This document shows positions 2,871 through 39,303 of a stretch of DNA of 64,000 nt, one piece after another. The position numbers were made by a program, and so were the translations under genes. Each line of letters begins with the position of its first letter. Position 1 is the first letter of the stretch. The notes beneath the pieces are model-generated. The model did no database searches. It had not been told where the DNA came from and saw only the letters and a list, made by a program, of their open reading frames with translations. Source of the DNA: a virus. The DNA lies in the IMG/VR virus record IMGVR_UViG_3300029822_000004, positions 10,241 to 74,240 of that record. One strand, given 5' to 3'.

Positions 2871-3190
2871 TGGATTACTTGACCATAGGTGAATTGCAAC
2901 GGTCGTTTGACACAAAGCCAATCGACGAGCAGATAAAGATTGCCGGTGAGCTTGGTGAGTGGTGTGTGCGGGCTATAGAAACCAACGGCCTACATCGACA
3001 TACGTACTGCATTCACCCTATGGAACTGCACATCACCAAGGCCATCGTCTACGGCATACCACTTGAAACATTCATCGCTCAATATGTTGGAGTGAACGCA
3101 AAGACCAACCCTAAAACAATCAGAAGGCATTGGCGACGCATTAAGGCCATTATTGACACGGTGGATAATGAACGAAAGGATTACCAGTGA
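2867..3190 (+). CDS. Hypothetical protein
   Basis: GTGA overlaps at both ends. Confidence 0.6.
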   Translation: MMDYLTIGELQRSFDTKPIDEQIKIAGELGEWCVRAIETNGLHRHTYCIHPMELHITKAIVYGIPLETFIAQYVGVNAKTNPKTIRRHWRRIKAIIDTVDNERKDYQ

Positions 3191-3840
3191 GAGGCCGTAG
3201 CAAACTTCTGGATATGATGCCACTTGTAAGCATGAGCGATGAAGAGCTAAGGGAACAGGTATCAAAAGCAAAGGCCGGAGATGATGAGGCCGTTGCCATT
3301 GTCCTATCTGCTGTCATGCGCCGTGTCTACTGGCTTGCACAACGATATGAGCGGGTAGACTTGCTTGACGACATGATACAAGAAGGTGCTATGGCTGTGA
3401 TGGAGGCTATTGACAAGTTTGATCCTGAGAGGGCAAGGGATTCTTCGTTTATATCTTACATGACGCTTTGGGTAAAATCTCGTATACGCGGCCATTTGAA
3501 GAAGGACGTGCAGATAAGGACACACGATAAGAGCGTTGAGTATGTAAGCATGGACGCGCCTATTGCTGATGATGAACGGGTGTGGCATGACGTACTGGCA
3601 GTGGATTCACAGTCACCGTACACGCAATGCCAACTGAGTCATGATGCAATAGTGATACGCGGTCTTGTGCATGAGCTTGACGACAAGGAACGCGATGCAA
3701 TTATTATGACATTTGGCTTGGGTAGAGAGCCTATGCCGAGAGATGAGTATGCCCGTCGGTGTGGTGTTACAGGCCAGACAATCTACAATCGAGTACAGAG
3801 CGGCATAGGCAAAATGAGAAAGATGGCAGGATTGAAATGA
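3187..3840 (+). CDS. Sigma-70 family RNA polymerase sigma factor (regions 2 and 4)
   Basis: DDMIQEGAMAVMEAIDKFDPER..SFISYMTLWVKSRI (region 2); C-terminal HTH ARRCGVTGQTIYNRVQSGIGKMR. Confidence 0.88.
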   Translation: MRGRSKLLDMMPLVSMSDEELREQVSKAKAGDDEAVAIVLSAVMRRVYWLAQRYERVDLLDDMIQEGAMAVMEAIDKFDPERARDSSFISYMTLWVKSRIRGHLKKDVQIRTHDKSVEYVSMDAPIADDERVWHDVLAVDSQSPYTQCQLSHDAIVIRGLVHELDDKERDAIIMTFGLGREPMPRDEYARRCGVTGQTIYNRVQSGIGKMRKMAGLK

Positions 3841-4064
3841 AAATGAAAGTAACAGTGGTATTTGATGAGGAGATAGCGGTAGAACGGGCCGTGGATTTTG
3901 TTGCGAGGATATTAAGGAACAGGATTGAGTACATTAAACACAATCGCGACCACACTATTGAGTATGATAACGGGATGCTTAAGGCCGACCTGTATCCATC
4001 GGCAAAAGTAAATAAAGATGATCTGTGGTTTAGTGTCACGCAAGCAACGAACGAAGGGGATTGA
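3837..4064 (+). CDS. Hypothetical protein
   Basis: ATGA overlap with sigma gene 1 and TTGA overlap with sigma gene 2. Confidence 0.55.
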   Translation: MKMKVTVVFDEEIAVERAVDFVARILRNRIEYIKHNRDHTIEYDNGMLKADLYPSAKVNKDDLWFSVTQATNEGD

Positions 4065-4747
4065 CACCAGTGAGCGAATCAAGCAAGTACATCATTGGCC
4101 ATCTTGGTACTGTAGACCTTGACGATGCCACACTACGCAAGGAAGTAATCAAAGCGCAGACCGGTGACGATTGCGCCATGAATACAGTAATATCGGCAGT
4201 CATCAAGCGCATACATTGGATAGCCTCTCGTTGTGGTCGTCCAGAGATGATGGATGACCTGGTGCAAGAGGGTGCGTTGGCCATAATGACAGCCGTTGAA
4301 CGTTTCGATGCCGAGAAGGCCGGGAACTCGTCCTTTGTGTCCTATGCGTCATTGTGGGCTAAATCACGCATGAGGAATGCCCTAGCGCTGGCAGAGCCGG
4401 TAAGGTCACAGGATAAGGGTACGGCATTTCTGAGCTTTGATGCCATGCTATATGAAGATTCAGACAAAGCCCTACATGAGACTATTCCATCGACATACCC
4501 AACCCCGTATGCAGCCTATCGACAAGAGGAGGATGTAAAAACCATGTACGAACTATTGGACAAACTGAGCCTAGAAGAAAAAGATGCGATCATGCGCGTG
4601 CTCGGTCTAGGCGATGGTGGCAAGGAGCGGAATATGGATGTGGCTGCGAGTTGTGGTGTTAGTAAGAACGCTATCACCAATCGTGTCAAGCGCGGCATCA
4701 AACGTATGCGGGCGATGGTGCAAACGAAGGAAGTGGGACAACTATGA
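4061..4747 (+). CDS. Second sigma-70 family sigma factor, paralog of 3187..3840
   Basis: DDLVQEGALAIMTAVERFDAEK..SFVSYASLWAKSRM; HTH VAASCGVSKNAITNRVKRGIKRMR. Confidence 0.88.
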   Translation: MTPVSESSKYIIGHLGTVDLDDATLRKEVIKAQTGDDCAMNTVISAVIKRIHWIASRCGRPEMMDDLVQEGALAIMTAVERFDAEKAGNSSFVSYASLWAKSRMRNALALAEPVRSQDKGTAFLSFDAMLYEDSDKALHETIPSTYPTPYAAYRQEEDVKTMYELLDKLSLEEKDAIMRVLGLGDGGKERNMDVAASCGVSKNAITNRVKRGIKRMRAMVQTKEVGQL

Positions 4748-19045: not shown

Positions 19046-19195
19046 ATGAAAGACACAAACGTTTGGCTCTTTATTCTTTGGGCAGCTACTTTGGCCGGCA
19101 TGATACTGCTTGTCAATCTGCGTGTCAGTGTCCTAGAAGAGCGCCTTAACTCGATCGAACCAGCATTGCATATCCCCAAAGAGATATCAAAATGA
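19046..19195 (+). CDS. Small membrane protein (49 aa)
   Basis: GGAGG RBS; VWLFILWAATLAGMILLV; ATGA overlap with next gene; hand-translated. Confidence 0.5.
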   Translation: MKDTNVWLFILWAATLAGMILLVNLRVSVLEERLNSIEPALHIPKEISK

Positions 19196-20412
19196 AGTTT
19201 GCCCTACCACAAACTCAACTCAAAGAACGCATATCAAATTGTGAGGCTTGCGGACTCAACAAATCCTCTAAAATACCCGTTTATGGCTCTGGTGGTATGG
19301 GATTATTGATCGTGTTCGATGGCCAAGACTCGCTTCAGCAACAAGTGAAATCATTTGGTATTGGCTTTAGATTTGAGTTTGTGCGCAGGGCATTGAAGGA
19401 ATTAGGTATTGACATAACGCATGATTGCTGGGTCACGTCGCTGATACAATGCTACAGCAACGACTACACCAATCAGCAAGGGTCGTACTGTCTGGCCAAT
19501 CTACACAATGCTCTTGATACACTAAAGCCAAAAGTCGTGCTGTTCTTTGGTGAAGCGTGTCCGAGGGCCGTACTAAAAGACACCATCAAGGGCATTTATC
19601 TGGATATGGTTCGGGGCATTGTTCACAACTCGCGGATGTTCGGTTGCAGGATGGTCTTTACACTGTCACCCTTTCATCCGGCCAGTCAATCAGAAGAGGC
19701 GGTTATCAAAGTCATTCACCGTGATATTGCCATAGCCGCGAACTGTCTTGCGAGGCCATATAAGCAATACAAGGCAGAAGAGGGCTGTATTGAGCTAATG
19801 AACCCCCGTAATGCGGCGCTGTGGCTCGAACGTGAGGCCGGCCATACTCAAACACGGTGGCAGGCCTTCGACTATGAAACGAACAGTTTAAGGCCCTATA
19901 ATGACACGGCTGAGTTAGTGTCCTGCGCCATAGCCGACACGCCAGATCACGTTGTATCCTTCATGATTGACGATGTTACCACCGGGCCACTAAAACGCTG
20001 GCTGACATCACGGCATATAAAGAAAATTGCACACAACACGGCATTTGAGAGGGCGTGGTCAATCGTCAAGCTCGGTGTGGCTCCAGAGATGCTTATTGCT
20101 GACACGATGCTGTTATTTCACGCCATGGACAACCGCAAGGACAAGGTACGGTCAATCAAGTTCCTGGGGCCGATGCTCACGGGCTGTCAAATATGGAATG
20201 AGCATATTGAGGGATACCTTGAGGGTGACGCGGAGGGCAGCTATGGCATTAACAAGGTCAGGCAGATACCACAACGACAACTGCTGATATACAACGCCAT
20301 GGATTCGCTGATTGAGTTTCGGGTATTCGATGTGCTGACGGAGCAACTTAAGGACTACAAGAAGACATTCGCGCTGGCAAAGGAGCTGAAAAAAGAAAGG
20401 GATCAACAATGA
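19192..20412 (+). CDS. Family-4 UDG-like domain plus 3'-5' proofreading exonuclease (N-terminal part of a split PolA)
   Basis: CEACGL..VYGSG..DCWVTSLIQC..LKPKVVLFFG..FHPA; exonuclease motifs AFDYET, HNTAFE, YNAMD. Confidence 0.8.
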   Translation: MKFALPQTQLKERISNCEACGLNKSSKIPVYGSGGMGLLIVFDGQDSLQQQVKSFGIGFRFEFVRRALKELGIDITHDCWVTSLIQCYSNDYTNQQGSYCLANLHNALDTLKPKVVLFFGEACPRAVLKDTIKGIYLDMVRGIVHNSRMFGCRMVFTLSPFHPASQSEEAVIKVIHRDIAIAANCLARPYKQYKAEEGCIELMNPRNAALWLEREAGHTQTRWQAFDYETNSLRPYNDTAELVSCAIADTPDHVVSFMIDDVTTGPLKRWLTSRHIKKIAHNTAFERAWSIVKLGVAPEMLIADTMLLFHAMDNRKDKVRSIKFLGPMLTGCQIWNEHIEGYLEGDAEGSYGINKVRQIPQRQLLIYNAMDSLIEFRVFDVLTEQLKDYKKTFALAKELKKERDQQ

Positions 20413-20642: not shown

Positions 20643-21134
20643 ATGCCAAAAGAAATCACAATCCAAAAAGATACGTATTATAGCTGCAAACATTGTAAGG
20701 CACTATTCGAACATTTTACGGATGCTGTAGAACACGAAAAACGCTACCACAGCGCAGAAATTTGGCACACAGAACCAATGCCAAAATATTTTATTGGTGA
20801 TCTTATCGGCTTTGGTGGACATATGTACATCATAAGAGACCTTGAGCTATGCCAGAACACCAACATGAATCTTTATTCTATTAGTGCTTACCGTGAGTTC
20901 TATACAGGAACAAAGGACGCTGAAGGCCCATTCATGTTTGAAGATAAAACAATCAAGGTATATGAAGATGACATCACCGGAAGGATTAACAAGGGCAAGC
21001 TGCTTGAGGTCACGAGAAGGTTACTTAAAGTATACCCCTTTACGCAGGCAAAGGTTCAGGTCATGTCGGGATATGGTGATACGACACTCACGGAACTTCT
21101 TCCAGTAATAAACCTTGGATTGGGGAACGAATGA
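20643..21134 (+). CDS. Hypothetical protein with N-terminal C2H2-like finger
   Basis: YSCKHCKALF....AVEHEKRYH. Confidence 0.6.
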   Translation: MPKEITIQKDTYYSCKHCKALFEHFTDAVEHEKRYHSAEIWHTEPMPKYFIGDLIGFGGHMYIIRDLELCQNTNMNLYSISAYREFYTGTKDAEGPFMFEDKTIKVYEDDITGRINKGKLLEVTRRLLKVYPFTQAKVQVMSGYGDTTLTELLPVINLGLGNE

Positions 21135-21490
21135 TGACCATAGGAAAGCTAATCAAAGAACAACGTGAATGGCTGAACACTAATGGCGAGTTTTCTATCC
21201 GAAAGGTCGCCAAGCGGTGCGGATTCAGCGCTACCTATTTGAGCAAGATTGAGCGGGGTGTAGAAAATTGCCCCACCATGAAAGTAATCAGCGCACTGGC
21301 AGAAGACTTACAGATGAAGGAAGATGAACTCTGTCAGGCGGCTGGACGATTGCCAGACCATCAAGTAGAGTGGTTGGCATCAAAACAAACCCTGCTCATT
21401 GGTCTGCTGACGTATGGTTTGTATCTAACTGACAAAGAATTGGAAAAGATAAACAACTATGCACTAAATCTCTTGAGAGAAAGGGAGTGA
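21131..21490 (+). CDS. XRE-family HTH regulator
   Basis: SIRKVAKRCGFSATYLSKIERG..P. Confidence 0.85.
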   Translation: MMTIGKLIKEQREWLNTNGEFSIRKVAKRCGFSATYLSKIERGVENCPTMKVISALAEDLQMKEDELCQAAGRLPDHQVEWLASKQTLLIGLLTYGLYLTDKELEKINNYALNLLRERE

Positions 21491-21491
21491 T

Positions 21492-22862
21492 GTGTTAACG
21501 CCCACTACGTCTGATGCGTTCAAGTTACTCATGCGCGGTGAACAGGCCCTTACCGCCATGAGCATAAACGGCATGAAGATTGACCGTGACTACTATGCAG
21601 GTCTTGAACCAGAAATCATAAATGAAGCGGCAAAGTTGGAAAATGCAATACTTAACAGCACCGAGATTGGTTCCGTATGGTCTGGCATGTTCTCGACGGC
21701 TGCCAATCTTGACTCTACTGACCAACTCAAAAAGGTGCTGCTGTCCACGGGCTTTGATAGATTCAAGACAACGGAAAAGGGCGGGTTAAGTGCAGATAAG
21801 GAAGTCATTGCAAAACTCCCTTACGAATTCTCAAGTCGCTATCTCAAGTATAAACAGCTCAAGAAAGCGTGGGGGAGCATCATTCAGCCCATGCTTCGTG
21901 AGTGTGATGACAAGGGCTTCATTCACCCATTGTTCAATCTCCACACCGTATCGACCTACAGAAGCTCCGGTAGTGACCCCAATCTCCAGCAGGTAAGCAA
22001 ACACGACAAGCTGATGAAGCGTTTGGTGCGTACTGGCTGCATACCACGGACACCAGACAGGCAGTTGCTGGAGATTGACCTAAAATCGAATGAAGTGTCG
22101 GTTGGTTGTTGCCTGCACAAAGACAAGCAGATGCTCAAATTTCTGCAAGACCCCGATGCCGACATGCATGAAACAGTAGCAAAGAAATACTACAGATTGA
22201 GAGCGGACGAATTCACACGGGACTTGCGAACATCTGTAAAGGGCCGGATTGTCTTTGCGTCGTTTTATGGTGCTGGATACGAGAGCATGGCGAACAGCCT
22301 CTGGGAGTACATAACCGAAGAGAATCCCAAACTGGCTACGGGCGAGGAGCTGAAGATACATATGCAGCGCCTTGGTCTTAACAGCTTTGAGGATTGCAAG
22401 ACGTATACCGAGAAGTTCTATGATTGGTACTGGCACACGCTGTTCAAGGATTATGACCAATGGAAAACCGACATTTGGGATCATTATACAAAAGTCGGCT
22501 ATGTTGATTTGCCTACGGGCTTCAGGGCAGTAAGCGCCATTGGCAAGACGCAGCTAATCAACTTGCCAATACAGGGTGCGGCTTTTCATGTGCTGCTGGC
22601 TACCGCGATTGGCCTTGTAAACCGCATGAAGCACTATAAGCTAAAGTCGGTCGCCATAGGACAGATTCATGACTCTGTGTTGCTTGATATCGTACCAGAA
22701 GAGCTACAGCAAATCGTTGAAATGTACATGGACTCGCAGGACGACGTTCGGAAGATGTGGCCTTGGCTGATATACCCTATCGGCGCTGAGGCTGATATAT
22801 CAAAAGTGGGTGGAAACTGGTGTGATATGGAAAGTATTGGTCTTTTACAACGTGCAGCATAA
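21492..22862 (+). CDS. DNA polymerase family A, polymerase domain
   Basis: TYRSSGSDPNLQQ; motif A EIDLKSNE; motif B RTSVKGRIVFASFYG; NLPIQG; motif C QIHDS. Confidence 0.93.
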   Translation: MLTPTTSDAFKLLMRGEQALTAMSINGMKIDRDYYAGLEPEIINEAAKLENAILNSTEIGSVWSGMFSTAANLDSTDQLKKVLLSTGFDRFKTTEKGGLSADKEVIAKLPYEFSSRYLKYKQLKKAWGSIIQPMLRECDDKGFIHPLFNLHTVSTYRSSGSDPNLQQVSKHDKLMKRLVRTGCIPRTPDRQLLEIDLKSNEVSVGCCLHKDKQMLKFLQDPDADMHETVAKKYYRLRADEFTRDLRTSVKGRIVFASFYGAGYESMANSLWEYITEENPKLATGEELKIHMQRLGLNSFEDCKTYTEKFYDWYWHTLFKDYDQWKTDIWDHYTKVGYVDLPTGFRAVSAIGKTQLINLPIQGAAFHVLLATAIGLVNRMKHYKLKSVAIGQIHDSVLLDIVPEELQQIVEMYMDSQDDVRKMWPWLIYPIGAEADISKVGGNWCDMESIGLLQRAA

Positions 22863-25840: not shown

Positions 25841-27007
25841 ATGTACAACATTGAAAAACTCCGAGCCAGACGCGCTGCACGCCTTGCCGATACCCGAAGT
25901 GCGGCAGAGGGCAATGATTTTGAGATACTTAACACCACCTTTCTGCCGCAGGGTGTGAATCTGTGGTTCCCAGCCGAACAGTGCCAGGTGATGATGCGCG
26001 TGGTGCAGTTCGAGGTTACGCAGAAGAACAACATCGACAACAACGAGATTGGCGATTATGTGGCTGCCCGCTCGTATTACCTGCATCGCCTGCCTGGCCG
26101 GAAAAAGCCGTTCATCTGCCCATCCACCTATGGCAAGCCCTGTCCCGTGTGTGAGCGCTTCTATTCATTCAGCAAAGAAGAGCGCGGAAACTTCAAGGGG
26201 CCGGCCAACGCGTTCAAACCACGTCAGATGGTTGTATTCAACGCTCTGTGCAAGATTGCCAGCGAGGACGGCACTACCAAGACAGTGATGCGCGTTGTTC
26301 GTGGTGGCCATTTCAGTACCTACGGCAAGATTCTCGAGGCTGTAAAAAATACCGCCACGTTCAATCCCAAGCGCGCCGATGATATCTTCCAGTTTGAGGA
26401 CTTGGAACTGGGCTACTGGCTGCAAGTTGGGTTTGCCAAGGCCGCATCTATCTCTGGCGCTGGTGGCACGCCCTTTATGCAGATCGTGGTATGCAATCCC
26501 ATGTGGCAGGAGCAGCGTGTGGCCATCAGCGAAAAGGTATGGGCGAAAGTGACCGACCTTGATCGCCTTATCCCGCAAGCACCGTCCATTGCTGAAATCA
26601 ATGAGATGCTTGGGGATGGTGTCAGCGACTTCTCAAAAGAGGTCGAGGATGGCGGTGATGATCTCGGTGATGACTTCTCTGATAATGTGAAGGGCATTGC
26701 TCCTGCTGTCGTAGACCCTGCACCAGCACCCGCCCCAGCACCCGCCCCAGCACCCGCCCCGGCTCCAAAAGATGGTGACGACATTGCGGACGACGATGTA
26801 CAGACAGTAACCGCCCCGCCAGAGGATGACTTTGGCGATATCGGTGCTGAGACTGTTCCTACAGACGCCGTTCCCGTATCTGATTTCGAGCAGTCGGTAC
26901 CAGCCGCACCAAAGTCCGCACCAAAGTCCGCACCGAAGCCCGTGGCACCTAAGCCAGCTCCGGCATCCACGCTTGGCGCTGATGACTTTGACTCATTCGA
27001 TTTCTAG
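25841..27007 (+). CDS. Single-stranded DNA-binding protein (gp32-like)
   Basis: YYLH...FICPSTYGKPCPVCE zinc motif; long acidic, Pro/Ala-rich tail ending DDFDSFDF. Confidence 0.75.
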   Translation: MYNIEKLRARRAARLADTRSAAEGNDFEILNTTFLPQGVNLWFPAEQCQVMMRVVQFEVTQKNNIDNNEIGDYVAARSYYLHRLPGRKKPFICPSTYGKPCPVCERFYSFSKEERGNFKGPANAFKPRQMVVFNALCKIASEDGTTKTVMRVVRGGHFSTYGKILEAVKNTATFNPKRADDIFQFEDLELGYWLQVGFAKAASISGAGGTPFMQIVVCNPMWQEQRVAISEKVWAKVTDLDRLIPQAPSIAEINEMLGDGVSDFSKEVEDGGDDLGDDFSDNVKGIAPAVVDPAPAPAPAPAPAPAPAPKDGDDIADDDVQTVTAPPEDDFGDIGAETVPTDAVPVSDFEQSVPAAPKSAPKSAPKPVAPKPAPASTLGADDFDSFDF

Positions 27008-27015
27008 TAACTGGT

Positions 27016-27045
27016 GGTGGCCGGTGTAGTGATATGCCGGCCACC
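27016..27045 (+). terminator. GC-rich hairpin after SSB gene (terminator or processing site)
   Basis: GGTGGCCGG...CCGGCCACC; U tract is weak. Confidence 0.5.
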
Positions 27046-27052
27046 TGAATTT

Positions 27053-27302
27053 GATGTTATAGAAAGGTGGGCTTAGAAGTAGCCATCCTATAATGAGCAG
27101 GAAGAACTACCATTGGCGCTAAAAGGTCACTACTATCTAGGACAGCATATAATCTCTAGAAAGAGGATAAGGGCTGTCTGCAAGGTGGCTATGACTGATG
27201 TGCTGATGGGAAAATAGGAGTAAGTGGAGTTAAAGACTTCCACCCAGGTTAGATAATACTATGGGGTAGTTCCTCTTGGTGTAAAAACACATCTATAACA
27301 TC
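27053..27302 (+). ncRNA. Structured RNA resembling 23S rRNA GTPase-associated centre with a large insertion
   Basis: 11-bp terminal helix GATGTTATAGA/TCTATAACATC; GGTGGGCTTAGAAGTAGCCATCC matches H43; GTGTAAAAACAC hairpin at the H44 position. Confidence 0.75.
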
Positions 27303-27345
27303 TTTTATTCATGCAGGCATCAAACAGCATCATAAATCGCACACT

Positions 27346-27558
27346 ATGATCACACCGAGTAACGTACTGTTGAACTGGATTAACGAGTTGAGTGCAAGGC
27401 GTGATGCACTGATACTCGCAACAGAAAAGATCAGCGACAACGAAAAGCGTATGGAGTCAATGGATGAGGCATATAACATAGGAGGGCAGATAGCCAGAGC
27501 AAAGGACATGCTCGCAGACATAAACAGAGAAATAACAAACCCTAGAGGCTATCGATAG
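27346..27558 (+). CDS. Hypothetical protein
   Basis: 70 aa; helical. Confidence 0.5.
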   Translation: MITPSNVLLNWINELSARRDALILATEKISDNEKRMESMDEAYNIGGQIARAKDMLADINREITNPRGYR

Positions 27559-27567
27559 GAGTAAACC

Positions 27568-28989: not shown

Positions 28990-29451
28990 ATGGCCGGCGT
29001 CTTTAGCATATTCATCCCATGCACACCAAAGGCCGTCCAGTCGGTGCGGTCTTTCGTGGCTGGCAAGAAAATTATGCACTACCAACCCAAGGACGTGGTT
29101 GACTGGAAGACGTACATCCAAGTAAGTATCCTCAACGCCCTTACACCCGCATGGACGCCACTTGAATGCCCCGTGTCCGTTGATGTGGTCTATATATTCT
29201 CTCCACGGAAGAGCGAAAAAAAGACCATCCTTGCGGAAATTGCTGACGGCGCGTGGTACTACAAGACGACAAGGCCCGACATGGACAATCTTGGCAAGGG
29301 CCTCTATGATGCATGTACTGGCGTGCTGTGGGCTGATGACTCGCAGATCGCAGAGAAACACGAGGTGAAAGTCTACGGAAAGAAAGAAGGCATAATGATA
29401 TGCGTAAACAAACTGCCAACGAGCATACAAAGCTCTACCAGTATCTCCTGA
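28990..29451 (+). CDS. rusA: RusA-family Holliday junction resolvase
   Basis: RPDMDNLGKGLYDA...WADDSQI. Confidence 0.9.
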   Translation: MAGVFSIFIPCTPKAVQSVRSFVAGKKIMHYQPKDVVDWKTYIQVSILNALTPAWTPLECPVSVDVVYIFSPRKSEKKTILAEIADGAWYYKTTRPDMDNLGKGLYDACTGVLWADDSQIAEKHEVKVYGKKEGIMICVNKLPTSIQSSTSIS

Positions 29452-29639
29452 AGAACCTGATTGATCCTACTGCGGTAGCCAAGCTGCTTCGATGTTCGCG
29501 ACAGACCATGCGTGTGTACACGTTGCAAGGCCCGCCGAGCTATCTGGTGGCATGCGCAATAGCCTATGTACTTGGTTGCACGCCAGAGGACATCTACAGC
29601 AAAGAGGAAAGCAGAAAGGCCAGAAGGAATGCTCTCTAA
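29400..29639 (+). CDS. HTH regulator
   Basis: VAKLLRCSRQTM...IAYVLGCTPEDIY. Confidence 0.6.
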   Translation: MRKQTANEHTKLYQYLLKNLIDPTAVAKLLRCSRQTMRVYTLQGPPSYLVACAIAYVLGCTPEDIYSKEESRKARRNAL

Positions 29640-37486: not shown

Positions 37487-38041
37487 ATGAAACTATCTAA
37501 ATGGGCAACTCAACAAGGTATCCATTACCAAACAGCTTGGCAATGGTACAAAGACGGGCGCATAGCAAACGCCTATCAAACATCCACCGGATCAATTTTT
37601 GTACCTGATCCGCATCCCTCTAAAGATGAGCGTGTGGTTGTGTACGCAAGGGTTAGTAATCGGGAACGCAAAGAGTCCTTGCAGTCCCAGGCAGATCGAT
37701 GCGTTACGTTTGCCAACGCCAATGGGCTGTCGGTGGATAAGGTCTATACCGAAATAGCATCCGGTATGAATGATACCCGCCGAGAGCTTTGGCGTATGTT
37801 GGATAGTAAACCAACCGTGGTTATCGTAGAAAACCGTGACCGTCTTACTCGATTCGGCTTTGAGTATCTTAACCGGCTGTTGAAACAACAGGGGTGCACG
37901 GTGCTCGTACTGAACCAAAGCGAGACGGATACCCAGGATTTATTAAGAGATCTCACCAGTGTAATCTACTCCTTCTGCGCACGGCTGTATGGAAGACGCA
38001 GAGCAATGAACCGATTAAAAGACATCAAAAAATGCCTATAG
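37487..38041 (+). CDS. tnpA: IS607 serine transposase TnpA
   Basis: N-terminal HTH (WATQQGIHYQTAWQWY); VYARVS; EIASGMND; DRLTRFGF; FCARLYGRR. Confidence 0.93.
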   Translation: MKLSKWATQQGIHYQTAWQWYKDGRIANAYQTSTGSIFVPDPHPSKDERVVVYARVSNRERKESLQSQADRCVTFANANGLSVDKVYTEIASGMNDTRRELWRMLDSKPTVVIVENRDRLTRFGFEYLNRLLKQQGCTVLVLNQSETDTQDLLRDLTSVIYSFCARLYGRRRAMNRLKDIKKCL

Positions 38042-39303
38042 TCCGCACATCACCGGTACTGCTGTCCAAAGCCAATGAAGGCAAACTGGATATATTGCAC
38101 GGATTCCTTGAAGAGTACCGTAGAGTAGTCCAGTGCACTATTGACCATGCCTGGGATAATCGGCTGATTTTTGGCGAGCGCGTTTTAGACATTCAAAACG
38201 ACCGCTTGGAGCTTCCCTCCTTTCTCCCCGTTGCCTGCTTACCAGAAATGGACACTCCTTTATCTGGGCGGGCGATTAAATGCGCTACCACACAGGCAAT
38301 GTCTATGCTTAAGGCTGCTTTGAAGCGACGGGTAAAGGACATTGCCTGGCTCTCCAAGCTTGATGGTACTCCTGCGCCAAGGATTCTTATGCAACGGCTG
38401 AGCAGGCCGCTAGTAAAGCCGTCAGCTGCCGGTGTGTCGGCAGAGCTTAACTCCATTTGCGCTAAACTTGTCTGGACATCTGAAACCTCCTTTGATGGGT
38501 GGCTCGTGCTTTCATCGTTGGGGAAACCGTTTGGTAAGCTGCATCTGCCCGTCAACAGGCACCGGCATCTTAACAGGCTTGCTGTCGGCACACAACTGGC
38601 CAGTTTGCTTATTAGCGAAACACGGGCGGATGTGCGTTTTGCCATGGAATCAAAAACAAAAAGTTCTTTGGCGGTTCGTGTGGTAGGGGCGGACACCGGA
38701 CTCAAAACCGTCCTCTCCTTATCTGACGGTCAGACGACCCCTGAGATCGATTGCCACGGACATTCGTTACAGAGTATATGCCACGAACTAGCCAGAAAGA
38801 AAAAAGGATCCAAGGCGTTTGGCCAGGCTCAGGATCACCGCAAGAACTTTATCAACTGGTCCCTTAACAGGCTCAATCTCTCCACCATTACAGAGATTCG
38901 TCTGGAGAGGGTTAAACACATTAACTATGGACGTAGATCTTCCAGGTTTATGCAAGCCTGGACAAATGCAGACATCCAGCGCAAGGTGCTAATGATGGCA
39001 GAAGATCAGAATGTTTCTGTGAAACTCCAGTCAAGTGCCTACCGTAGTCAGCGCTGTTCGTGCTGCGGAATGGTAAGGAAAGCAAACAGGAAGGGGAAAG
39101 TCTATTCATGCAAGGGATGTGGATTCGTCTGTGATGCAGATTTGAATGCCGCACGCAACCATGAACAAGATCTTCCCCCCATCCCTGATGCTTTCTTTAG
39201 GACGGGTAAGAACACTGGCAAAGGTTTCTACTGGAAATCTACTGGCTGCTCTTTATCGACCGGGGTGGAGTTTGCAGTCCCATCTTCCAACTGTCAAGCC
39301 TGA
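38032..39303 (+). CDS. tnpB: TnpB RNA-guided nuclease
   Basis: RuvC-I VGADTG, RuvC-II IRLE, zinc finger SQRCSCCG..CKGCG, RuvC-III DADLNAARN. Confidence 0.9.
   Translation: MPIVRTSPVLLSKANEGKLDILHGFLEEYRRVVQCTIDHAWDNRLIFGERVLDIQNDRLELPSFLPVACLPEMDTPLSGRAIKCATTQAMSMLKAALKRRVKDIAWLSKLDGTPAPRILMQRLSRPLVKPSAAGVSAELNSICAKLVWTSETSFDGWLVLSSLGKPFGKLHLPVNRHRHLNRLAVGTQLASLLISETRADVRFAMESKTKSSLAVRVVGADTGLKTVLSLSDGQTTPEIDCHGHSLQSICHELARKKKGSKAFGQAQDHRKNFINWSLNRLNLSTITEIRLERVKHINYGRRSSRFMQAWTNADIQRKVLMMAEDQNVSVKLQSSAYRSQRCSCCGMVRKANRKGKVYSCKGCGFVCDADLNAARNHEQDLPPIPDAFFRTGKNTGKGFYWKSTGCSLSTGVEFAVPSSNCQA

Follow-up and report, generated by a model that had tools for sequence, protein, structure and literature searches.

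A phage RNA family that seems to imitate the GTPase-associated centre of 23S rRNA away from the ribosome

The window, a stretch of 64 kb (64,000 nucleotides) from a 74,240-bp IMG/VR virus record (IMGVR_UViG_3300029822_000004; completeness rating of the record 100%) which is a tailed phage, carries at positions 27053-27302 a 250-nt element that very probably folds as a mimic of the GTPase-associated centre (GAC) of bacterial 23S rRNA. In the proposed fold, the 5' end (27053-27097) and the 3' end (27275-27302) would rebuild the GAC (E. coli 1051-1108), with a helix P1 replacing helix H42, with H43 and its UUAGAAGYA loop, the 1082:1086 pair, H44 and its GUAANA loop, and the 1072·(1092:1099) triple; a domain of 177 nt and seven helices would extend from the 5' strand of H44. 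The element is a member of a large, widespread and apparently undescribed family of phage RNAs, and phages seem to imitate the GAC site away from the ribosome. The reading preferred here, at a probability of roughly 0.55, is that the RNA acts through a GAC ligand to which it binds away from the ribosome.

The likeness to rRNA had been proposed in an earlier note made from the bare sequence, and all strings quoted in it were found at the places given. Compared with E. coli 1056-1089 and 1091-1103, 35 of the 47 core positions are identical in the window, and seven of the twelve differences fall into three co-varying sets, namely 1058/1080 (U:A to G:C), 1082/1086 (U:A to A:U) and 1072/1092/1099. 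The copy of H43 with its junction (27064-27097, plus strand, equivalent to E. coli 1056-1089) equals E. coli at 26 of 34 positions and is covered by the alignment to R1, the covariance model introduced below; A1067 corresponds to 27075, U1060 to 27068, 1072 to U27080, the 1082:1086 pair to A27090:U27094, G1087 to 27095, and A1088 to 27096. The copy of H44 (27275-27291, plus strand), consisting of a CUUG linker and a hairpin at 27279-27291, equals E. coli at 9 of 13 positions, with G1091 at 27279, U1092:A1099 at 27280:27287, the loop GUAAAA at 27281-27286, A1095 at 27283, C1100 at 27288, C1102 at 27290 (paired with G27095), and A1103 at 27291. Of the 17 nucleotides contacted by the C-terminal domain of ribosomal protein uL11, as listed in PMC1802607, 14 are the same in the window as in E. 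coli, and the other three lie in compensated pairs. The 11-bp closing helix drawn in the earlier note is present as P1, whose 5' strand (27053-27063, plus strand, GATGTTATAGA) stands in place of the H42 tip and pairs with the 3' strand (27292-27302, plus strand, TCTATAACATC), which is followed by TTTTATT. The folding energy of the plus strand of 27053-27302 is -85.5 kcal/mol, compared with -60.2 ± 5.0 kcal/mol for 200 dinucleotide shuffles, none of which folded as well (z = -5.0); for the minus strand, z = -3.9.

At least 118 IMG/VR stretches contain an H43-like motif of 18 bases, one of them left free, and nearly all of these stretches read helix-GGNNGUN-GGCUUAGAAGYAGCCAUC-NNYUAARGAGU-variable insert. 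Full elements were located by script, the criterion being an H44-like hairpin with a segment complementary to the 5' flank behind it; this yielded 89 distinct elements of 105-416 nt and, after removal of the mis-called L006, L050 and L051, 86 including the window. From 27 of the shortest elements, with the window left out and the rRNA-type structure imposed, an alignment (A1) was built in which 95.1% of cells are paired, compared with 65.6% on shuffling; its covariation score is 0.601, compared with 0.146 for shuffled alignments (none of 500 as high) and at most 0.147 for slid partners. Both partners have changed in 11 of 11 P1 pairs, 2 of 6 H43 pairs, 4 of 4 pairs at the foot of the insert helix and 1 of 2 H44 pairs; the inner H43 pairs are uninformative on covariation because they were fixed by the search pattern. 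P1 is free in both sequence and length across the family (4-26 bp).

The model R1, built from A1 and thus seeded without the window, matches 27056-27299 at 80.5 bits (E 1e-18), which places the GAC-like RNA suspected in the earlier note beyond chance; the hit covers the full length of the model (positions 1-156), and the next match in the window reaches 6.9 bits (E 2.9). The search of the pattern loci covered L005-L104, with the 18 loci L105-L122 left aside, and gave at least 37 bits in 96 of these 100, 27 of which are the model's own seed; no match was obtained in L050, L053 and L100, and L044 reached only 21.7 bits. Applied to the E. coli rrn locus (L123), R1 returned a single match, which is the 23S GAC itself (49.5 bits, E 6e-11). 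The rrl copy used as reference there (L123 2199-2205) reads GCCGTGGGATG directly 5' of H43, two bases longer at that place than the 60-nt reference RNA given in the available part of PMC1802607, a difference that could stem from variation in H42 between strains or gene copies.

The tertiary and junction contacts of the rRNA domain can be followed through the family as well. In rRNA, position 1072 reportedly forms a base triple with 1092:1099, the three positions covarying (Conn, Gutell and Draper are said to have described this in 1998). Among the 86 elements the triple is C·(C:G) in 70 and U·(U:A) in 15, with one real exception (L066); the window holds U·(U:A), the minority state. The lone pair 1082:1086, which in rRNA closes the UAA turn, is U:A in 44, C:G in 19, A:U in 3 (the state of the window) and non-standard in 12 of 78 elements, a count that excludes eight elements whose junction is one base shorter. 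The outer H43 pairs 1057:1081 and 1058:1080 are both Watson-Crick in 76 of the 78 and occur in seven combinations, that of the window being A1057:U1081 with G1058:C1080. An unbiased view of H43 was obtained from copies collected via the 3' motif (57 loci in prokaryotic contigs, 28 of them at 67 bits or more): in these 28, the H43 stem shows compensated changes and its loop is nearly constant. Conversely, the H44 loop is GUAANA in most of the copies anchored on H43. The structural claim of the earlier note, a stand-alone, self-closed mimic of the 23S GAC, is thus upheld by sequence identity, by helix covariation, by two covarying tertiary or junction interactions and by the reciprocal match of the model to E. 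coli.

Near-identical DNA occurs in sequencing runs from 14 studies on fermenters, landfills, wastewater and digesters, and contigs of four RNA libraries (metatranscriptomes), 90-99% identical, span the element. Substitutions were read in contigs X15 and X17 and, for the 3' part only, X18, and amount to six within the 250-nt RNA compared with six in the 90 nt just upstream. In P1, four of the six combine into two compensated double changes, T>G at 27055 together with A>C at 27300 and T>C at 27057 together with A>G at 27298. In helix Pb of the insert, A>G at 27194 replaces a U:A pair by U-G; C>T at 27181 converts an A-C mismatch to A:U. The RNA is under purifying selection, all six substitutions being compensatory or pair-keeping or pair-creating.

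The element is neither rRNA nor a copy of a host's rRNA. At the gathering score, Rfam 15 recognised a single tRNA in the whole window; a search of 26950-27400 with E up to 10 gave four chance matches of 12-16 bits, and on 20 family loci Rfam found tRNAs only. A known family, which the earlier note had named as a possibility to be checked, was therefore not matched, be it large-subunit (LSU) rRNA, ribosomal-protein leaders, GOLLD, ROOL or group I introns. A dedicated search found no LSU rRNA in the window or the whole phage record, and the same search was positive in 13 of 14 control genomes. Likewise, the flanks are not rRNA-like, as had been noticed before: a protein gene and small open reading frames (ORFs) adjoin the element. 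True rRNAs caught by the patterns are recognised by 23S sequence that continues after H44 (...GCUCACUGGUC...) and by having no insert. In five genomes that carry a copy, R1 finds this copy at 82-104 bits, and in four of them also their own 23S GAC at 40-60 bits; the resident copy differs from the host GAC at variable positions in G001, G002, G003 and G005, that is, in all four in which both could be read, and in the genome holding L297 the junction of the host GAC is one base longer than in the copy.

As to novelty, full-text searches of the literature gave no description of the phage GAC-mimic family, and we found no published case of a virus encoding a functional rRNA domain as a faithful copy that stands by itself. 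In a catalogue that lists about 10,000 candidate structured RNAs of viruses, the available part states that no candidate overlapped an rRNA prediction (PMC10690425); the family motif is absent from the six searchable supplement files of that paper, in which the family may nevertheless figure as an unnamed entry.

The inserted domain of 177 nt (27098-27274, plus strand) sits at the 1089/1090 position in the 5' strand of H44, leaving the core after G1087-A1088-G1089 and re-entering it before G1091. This follows the rule of the family, whose inserts lie between GAG(U) (1087-1090) and UUUGG (before 1091) and range from 41 to 346 nt with a median of 137.5; a minimal natural member, L015, has no insert, and the core is therefore regarded as the conserved functional unit. 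The insert of the window was compared in eleven sequences, five of them near-identical (the window, L073 on a 441-kb contig, L107, and four near-identical and four more distant metagenome copies). The comparative structure derived by RNAalifold has 57 pairs, in 31 of which both partners have changed; 94.5% of cells are paired, and the covariation score is 0.458 compared with 0.185 on shuffling (none of 500 shuffles as high). Since the program derived the structure from the same alignment, the pair counts lean towards this structure. On this comparison the insert is predicted to be a conserved domain of seven helices, all on the plus strand. It is closed by P-ins (27099-27103/27270-27274, AGGAA/UUCCU; four of five pairs covary in the subfamily), from which a long arm rises through Pa (27110-27119/27200-27209), Pb (27125-27129/27192-27196) and Pc (27133-27138/27183-27188, CUAUCU/AGGUGG; 100% of cells paired, the pair of columns 85:140 being C:G, A:U or G:C) to a variable hairpin, Pd (27141-27146/27173-27178), at its end; the hairpin Pe (27226-27231/27235-27240, GGAGUU/GACUUC) and the helix Pf (27242-27245/27264-27267) complete the set.

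The earlier drawing of the insert fared less well than that of the core. Its four helices, taken as drawn, leave 79.1% of cells paired at a score of 0.137 vs 0.104. The closing helix proposed there, GAACTACC/GGTAGTTC, is paired in 77% of cells with no compensated change and is replaced by P-ins, and the helix TATCTA/TAGATA had to be given up, its TAGATA side missing in 5 of the 11 sequences and CUAUCU at 27133-27138 pairing with AGGUGG instead. GTGGA/TCCAC did locate a real hairpin, with its register shifted by one relative to Pe (GGAGUU 27226-27231 with GACUUC 27235-27240), and GACAGC/GCTGTC (27141-27146/27173-27178) is acceptable as the variable hairpin Pd. A motif pair, GYGC-NAWAWG ... UGAUGUR, flanks Pa and Pb and is present in 13 of the 86 elements, so that this insert type represents a recurrent class. 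A search for further relatives with the pattern TTAGATAATACTATGG gave 107 loci, and among the 80 with DNA the one that was model-positive lies on the same contig as L073. Two other ideas about the insert were discarded. As a further piece of rRNA it found no support, ten inserts aligning to E. coli 23S no better than shuffles (window 20 vs 21.0 ± 2.2); the three best alignments, near 23S 2720-2750, stem from non-homologous parts of the inserts and are therefore ascribed to chance. A K-turn at the conserved internal loop (GYGC-NAAAW/UGAU-GUGC), inspected by eye, does not fit at the G-A/A-G positions.

The family is spread widely. A family member matches 53 GenBank phage records, some of which are rRNA contamination and among which T4 does not figure. 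R1 scores 95 bits in Pseudomonas phage pf16 (KU873925.1), where the element stands at about 29,415-29,605 between tRNA-Asn and tRNA-Pro, 89 bits in Xanthomonas phage XacN1, directly after a 2'-5' RNA ligase gene, 80.7 bits in Cronobacter phage GAP32, 71.6 bits in Serratia phage BF, and 48.5 bits in Aeromonas phage 4_4572, where only the 5' part of the blast match is covered; in four of these five records (pf16, XacN1, GAP32 and BF) the annotation has a gap that contains the whole element. A blastn search of the window's own element and 15 kb around it against GenBank phages gave no match. R1-positive copies also occur in contigs of Bacillota, Bacteroidota, Bdellovibrionota, Chloroflexota, candidate phyla and others, including the isolates Flintibacter muris DSM 110149 and 'Bacterium D16-76'; presumably, these are prophages or binned phage contigs. 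Two mimic copies are found together in L054 (601-618 and 919-936, 318 nt apart with a tRNA between them) and in L358 (1226-1243 and 5001-5018, 3.8 kb apart).

Among the 85 elements other than that of the window, 59 have a tRNA within about 600 nt, co-oriented with the element in 59 of 59 cases; in 44 the tRNA lies within 60 nt (20 upstream, 24 downstream), and 26, like the window, have no tRNA nearby. In addition, the columns 70:153, 77:148 and 88:137 of the insert alignment (in Pa, Pb and Pc) are invariant G-U pairs, which would become A-C mismatches if the minus strand were the RNA. From the co-oriented tRNAs and these G-U pairs we infer that the RNA is made from the plus strand. Two tRNAs with a CUA anticodon (amber-reading, called tRNA-Pyl by ARAGORN) lie within 600 nt of family members, too few to tie the RNA to stop-codon recoding. 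Clustering of 1,263 ORFs within 5 kb on either side at the level of blastp similarity, with annotation of the 12 largest clusters, revealed no neighbour protein recurring in more than 7 of 80 loci; RNA-repair proteins are represented by a polynucleotide kinase-phosphatase (PNKP) in 3 of 80, the HAD domain of 'Swiss Army Knife' RNA repair proteins in 3 of 80, and a metallophosphoesterase in 7 of 80. Individual examples of neighbours are a small RF-1-domain protein, a polynucleotide kinase-phosphatase, a 'Swiss Army Knife' HAD domain and a 2'-5' RNA ligase (L377:7330-7686, L387:8077-8910, L366:9228-9731 and L411 831-1481), each gene type being limited to 3 or fewer of the 80 loci or to a single named phage.

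In the window, the element occupies a 338-nt gap between an ORF of 388 aa (25841-27007) and one of 70 aa (27346-27558, plus strand), and neither strand has an ORF of at least 40 aa that reaches into 27030-27329. The 70-aa ORF has no match in PHROGs or Pfam and is not part of the RNA; contigs of relatives from three metatranscriptome runs join 27342 to 27566 with one G between, skipping 223 nt, so that the ORF is absent from contigs which retain the RNA and must be dispensable. The indel (27343-27565) immediately adjoins the conserved RNA. On the other side, directly after the stop codon of the 388-aa ORF and outside the GAC mimic, a G+C-rich hairpin (GGTGGCCGG/CCGGCCACC, 27016-27045, plus strand) was read from the sequence, which may be an mRNA end or a processing hairpin; having no T run, it was not called by the terminator scan, and the change 27021 C>T in relatives retains a G-U pair in it. 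The 388-aa protein itself has no family match and shows Ala-Pro and Lys-Ser-Ala-Pro repeats as well as an acidic tail, DDFDSFDF, which presumably recalls the C-terminal tails of single-strand DNA-binding proteins. The surrounding plus-strand early/replication block is long and encodes two sigma-factor-like proteins, helicases, a primase, methyltransferases, a split family-A DNA polymerase, a clamp loader, a 5'-3' exonuclease, RusA and an SbcCD-like protein; the minus strand carries the structural block with terminase, portal, major head protein and tape measure. The sole tRNA of the window, a Met tRNA (CAU), lies 36 kb from the element on the opposite strand.

Some further features of this genome may be recorded. 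The two sigma-factor-like genes of the early region (3187-3840 and 4061-4747) match phrog_351 with E values of 1e-30 and 2e-26. The polymerase is spread over ORFs 19192-20412, 20643-21134, 21131-21490 and 21492-22862, its 3'-5' exonuclease part (406 aa) and polymerase part (456 aa) being interrupted by two small ORFs, one with a weak match to DUF7128; this may reflect a split gene or an intervening mobile element. Between the early block and the tail genes, at 37487-39303, a transposase of the serine-recombinase type (184 aa; phrog_6620, E 5e-46) and a transposase-like ORF of 469 aa (phrog_12300/phrog_506) overlap; together they resemble an insertion sequence.

How might such an RNA act? A stable non-coding RNA of the plus strand would fold like the rRNA domain and bind the same ligand or ligands off the ribosome. 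According to the available part of PMC1802607, the isolated rRNA domain of 58-60 nt folds autonomously into a compact, ion-stabilised structure and binds the C-terminal domain of uL11. As this domain of the protein binds the isolated rRNA domain alone, uL11 would be the first candidate ligand. P1, having no conserved sequence or length, offers no conserved site of the H42 type, which points to a ligand of H43/H44 proper, again uL11 first; that uL11 is indeed the main partner is somewhat less likely than not. The effect would be that of a sink or decoy which takes up a component of host translation: an abundant free copy could lower the amount of uL11 on ribosomes or compete for factors. Signalling that depends on uL11 (RelA activation, RF1-dependent termination) might be weakened as a result, or the true GAC might be protected.

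Several observations weigh against binding of a GAC ligand off the ribosome. The protein uL11 is very abundant and mostly ribosome-bound, so that a sponge would need a high copy number. The insert alters the 5' strand of H44. In the copies gathered without reference to H43, A1067 is A in 24 of 28 and G in the other 4, so that the RNA and rRNA are not selected in exactly the same way. In L251, a metagenome relative with the same sequence as L236, both 5' changes of P1 are present without their 3' partners. Neither a sigma-70-type promoter nor an intrinsic terminator is predicted on the plus strand beside the element. As to expression, the metatranscriptome contigs are as deep over the element as over the neighbouring genes and could be DNA, they give no transcript start or end, and the very deep bin at 27063-27113 is true rRNA of other organisms. 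Finally, PHROGs and Pfam annotation found no translation-related gene in the phage, which with its one distant tRNA means that the genomic context offers no hint of function.

Other explanations have to be set beside the binding of a GAC ligand. If the element had no function and were either a piece of host 23S rRNA, captured or decayed, or a chimera of the assembly, the identity of at least 90% between 27064-27097 and abundant true rRNA in metatranscriptomes would be easily understood. The comparative data, however, already contradict this explanation, which is left with practically no probability: the phage has no other rRNA, the element occurs in runs from the 14 studies and is closed on itself by a helix whose sequence is free, covariation and compensatory changes argue against decay, resident copies differ from the host GAC in the four genomes named above, and the same architecture recurs in unrelated phages by the hundreds. 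A cis-acting leader, regulating the downstream gene through binding of a ribosomal protein, would agree with the location in the gap upstream of ORF 27346-27558 on the same strand. Since close relatives retain the RNA without that ORF, since the neighbours elsewhere are mostly tRNAs and the largest protein cluster covers 7 of 80 loci, and since neither a nearby ribosomal-protein gene nor a match to an Rfam leader family was found, such a role is very improbable.

That the RNA serves as a decoy or mimic substrate for a GAC-attacking toxin, be it of a host defence or of a competitor, and so spares the ribosomes needed by the phage, deserves more attention and is still unlikely. Phage tRNA genes presumably make up for tRNAs lost to defence nucleases, and the family usually resides in tRNA arrays (44 of 85 with a same-strand tRNA within 60 nt); RNA-repair genes (PNKP, HAD, metallophosphoesterase, and the 2'-5' RNA ligase beside the XacN1 copy) occur near some loci, each of them, however, in under a tenth of the loci and none in the window. 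The toxin Tre23 modifies H44 of the GAC, according to the available part of PMC8661411, which also reports that it left purified 23S rRNA and non-translating ribosomes unmodified; a naked mimic would therefore not be a Tre23 substrate. Furthermore, the literature searches brought up no anti-phage system aimed at the GAC. It can also be argued that the GAC-like core is only a stable, nuclease-resistant scaffold or processing module, with the variable insert or the neighbouring tRNAs as the working part. The wide range of insert lengths (41-346 nt), the conservation of the insert type of the window with its strongly conserved internal loops, and the compact, ion-stabilised fold of the rRNA domain (PMC1802607, in its available part) would all suit a scaffold. 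The natural copy without any insert (L015) and the largely retained ligand-type nucleotides in the exposed loops (A1067 in 24 of 28 copies; the H44 loop mostly GUAANA) render it less likely, and 26 of 85 copies, like the window, have no nearby tRNA; on balance we give a scaffold a small share of the probability.

Taken one step further, the binding of GAC ligands leads to a tentative picture, put somewhat below even odds: a portable, self-folding copy of the GAC, present in phages of many lineages, might serve as a trans-acting weapon against host translation control that captures uL11, RelA or a translational GTPase and thereby blunts the stringent response or changes termination, or that shields ribosomes from GAC-directed toxins, with lineage-specific inserts adding partners. 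If true, this would define a new class of viral counter-host RNA based on mimicry of a functional domain of rRNA, and would add a phage route for tampering with translation to those through tRNAs, ribosomal-protein genes and alarmone enzymes. The family is old enough for abundant compensatory change. Because it is carried by cultured phages of Pseudomonas, Xanthomonas, Cronobacter, Serratia and Aeromonas, the question can be taken to the bench now. It also provides a natural library of GAC variants, with the swap of the triple and many inserts in H44, for studies of RNA tertiary folding and of recognition by uL11 and thiopeptides.

The bacterial 23S GAC (tip of H42, H43 and H44; E. coli 1051-1108) is the 58-nt domain to which uL11 and thiostrepton bind and with which the translation GTPases make contact. 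The phage RNA shares with it the layout of three helices, both hairpin loops (A1067 in that of H43, A1095 in that of H44), and the covariation within the 1082:1086 pair and the 1072·(1092:1099) triple. Unlike the 23S GAC, it is phage-encoded, stands outside rRNA, is self-closed by a helix of arbitrary sequence, and carries the 177-nt insert in the 5' strand of H44, with the family usually co-oriented with tRNA genes; its H44 stem is shortened (GY...RC plus ACA, compared with AGC...GCUCAC in rRNA). The T4 species 1 and 2 RNAs are stable non-tRNA species from a phage tRNA cluster, and resemble the family in being unexplained and in lying among phage tRNA genes, with no sequence relation known. 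Protein-sequestering RNAs are represented by 6S RNA and CsrB. A phage pseudo-ToxI RNA is reported to mimic an antitoxin (PMC3475682). These three share the titration-by-mimicry logic proposed here, in which we infer sequestration by the phage GAC mimic; they have other targets and folds, and none copies an rRNA domain. To our knowledge, RNA mimicry of ribosomal-protein binding sites has been met only in cis-acting leaders of cellular ribosomal-protein operons. The L10 leader, which we take to be Rfam RF00557, an rRNA-mimicking leader of such an operon, is like the phage RNA an off-ribosome mimic of the binding site of a stalk-region ribosomal protein. These leaders, however, are cis-regulatory, cellular and loose mimics, whereas the phage RNA, with no ribosomal-protein gene adjoining, is free-standing and faithful down to the tertiary signature pairs.

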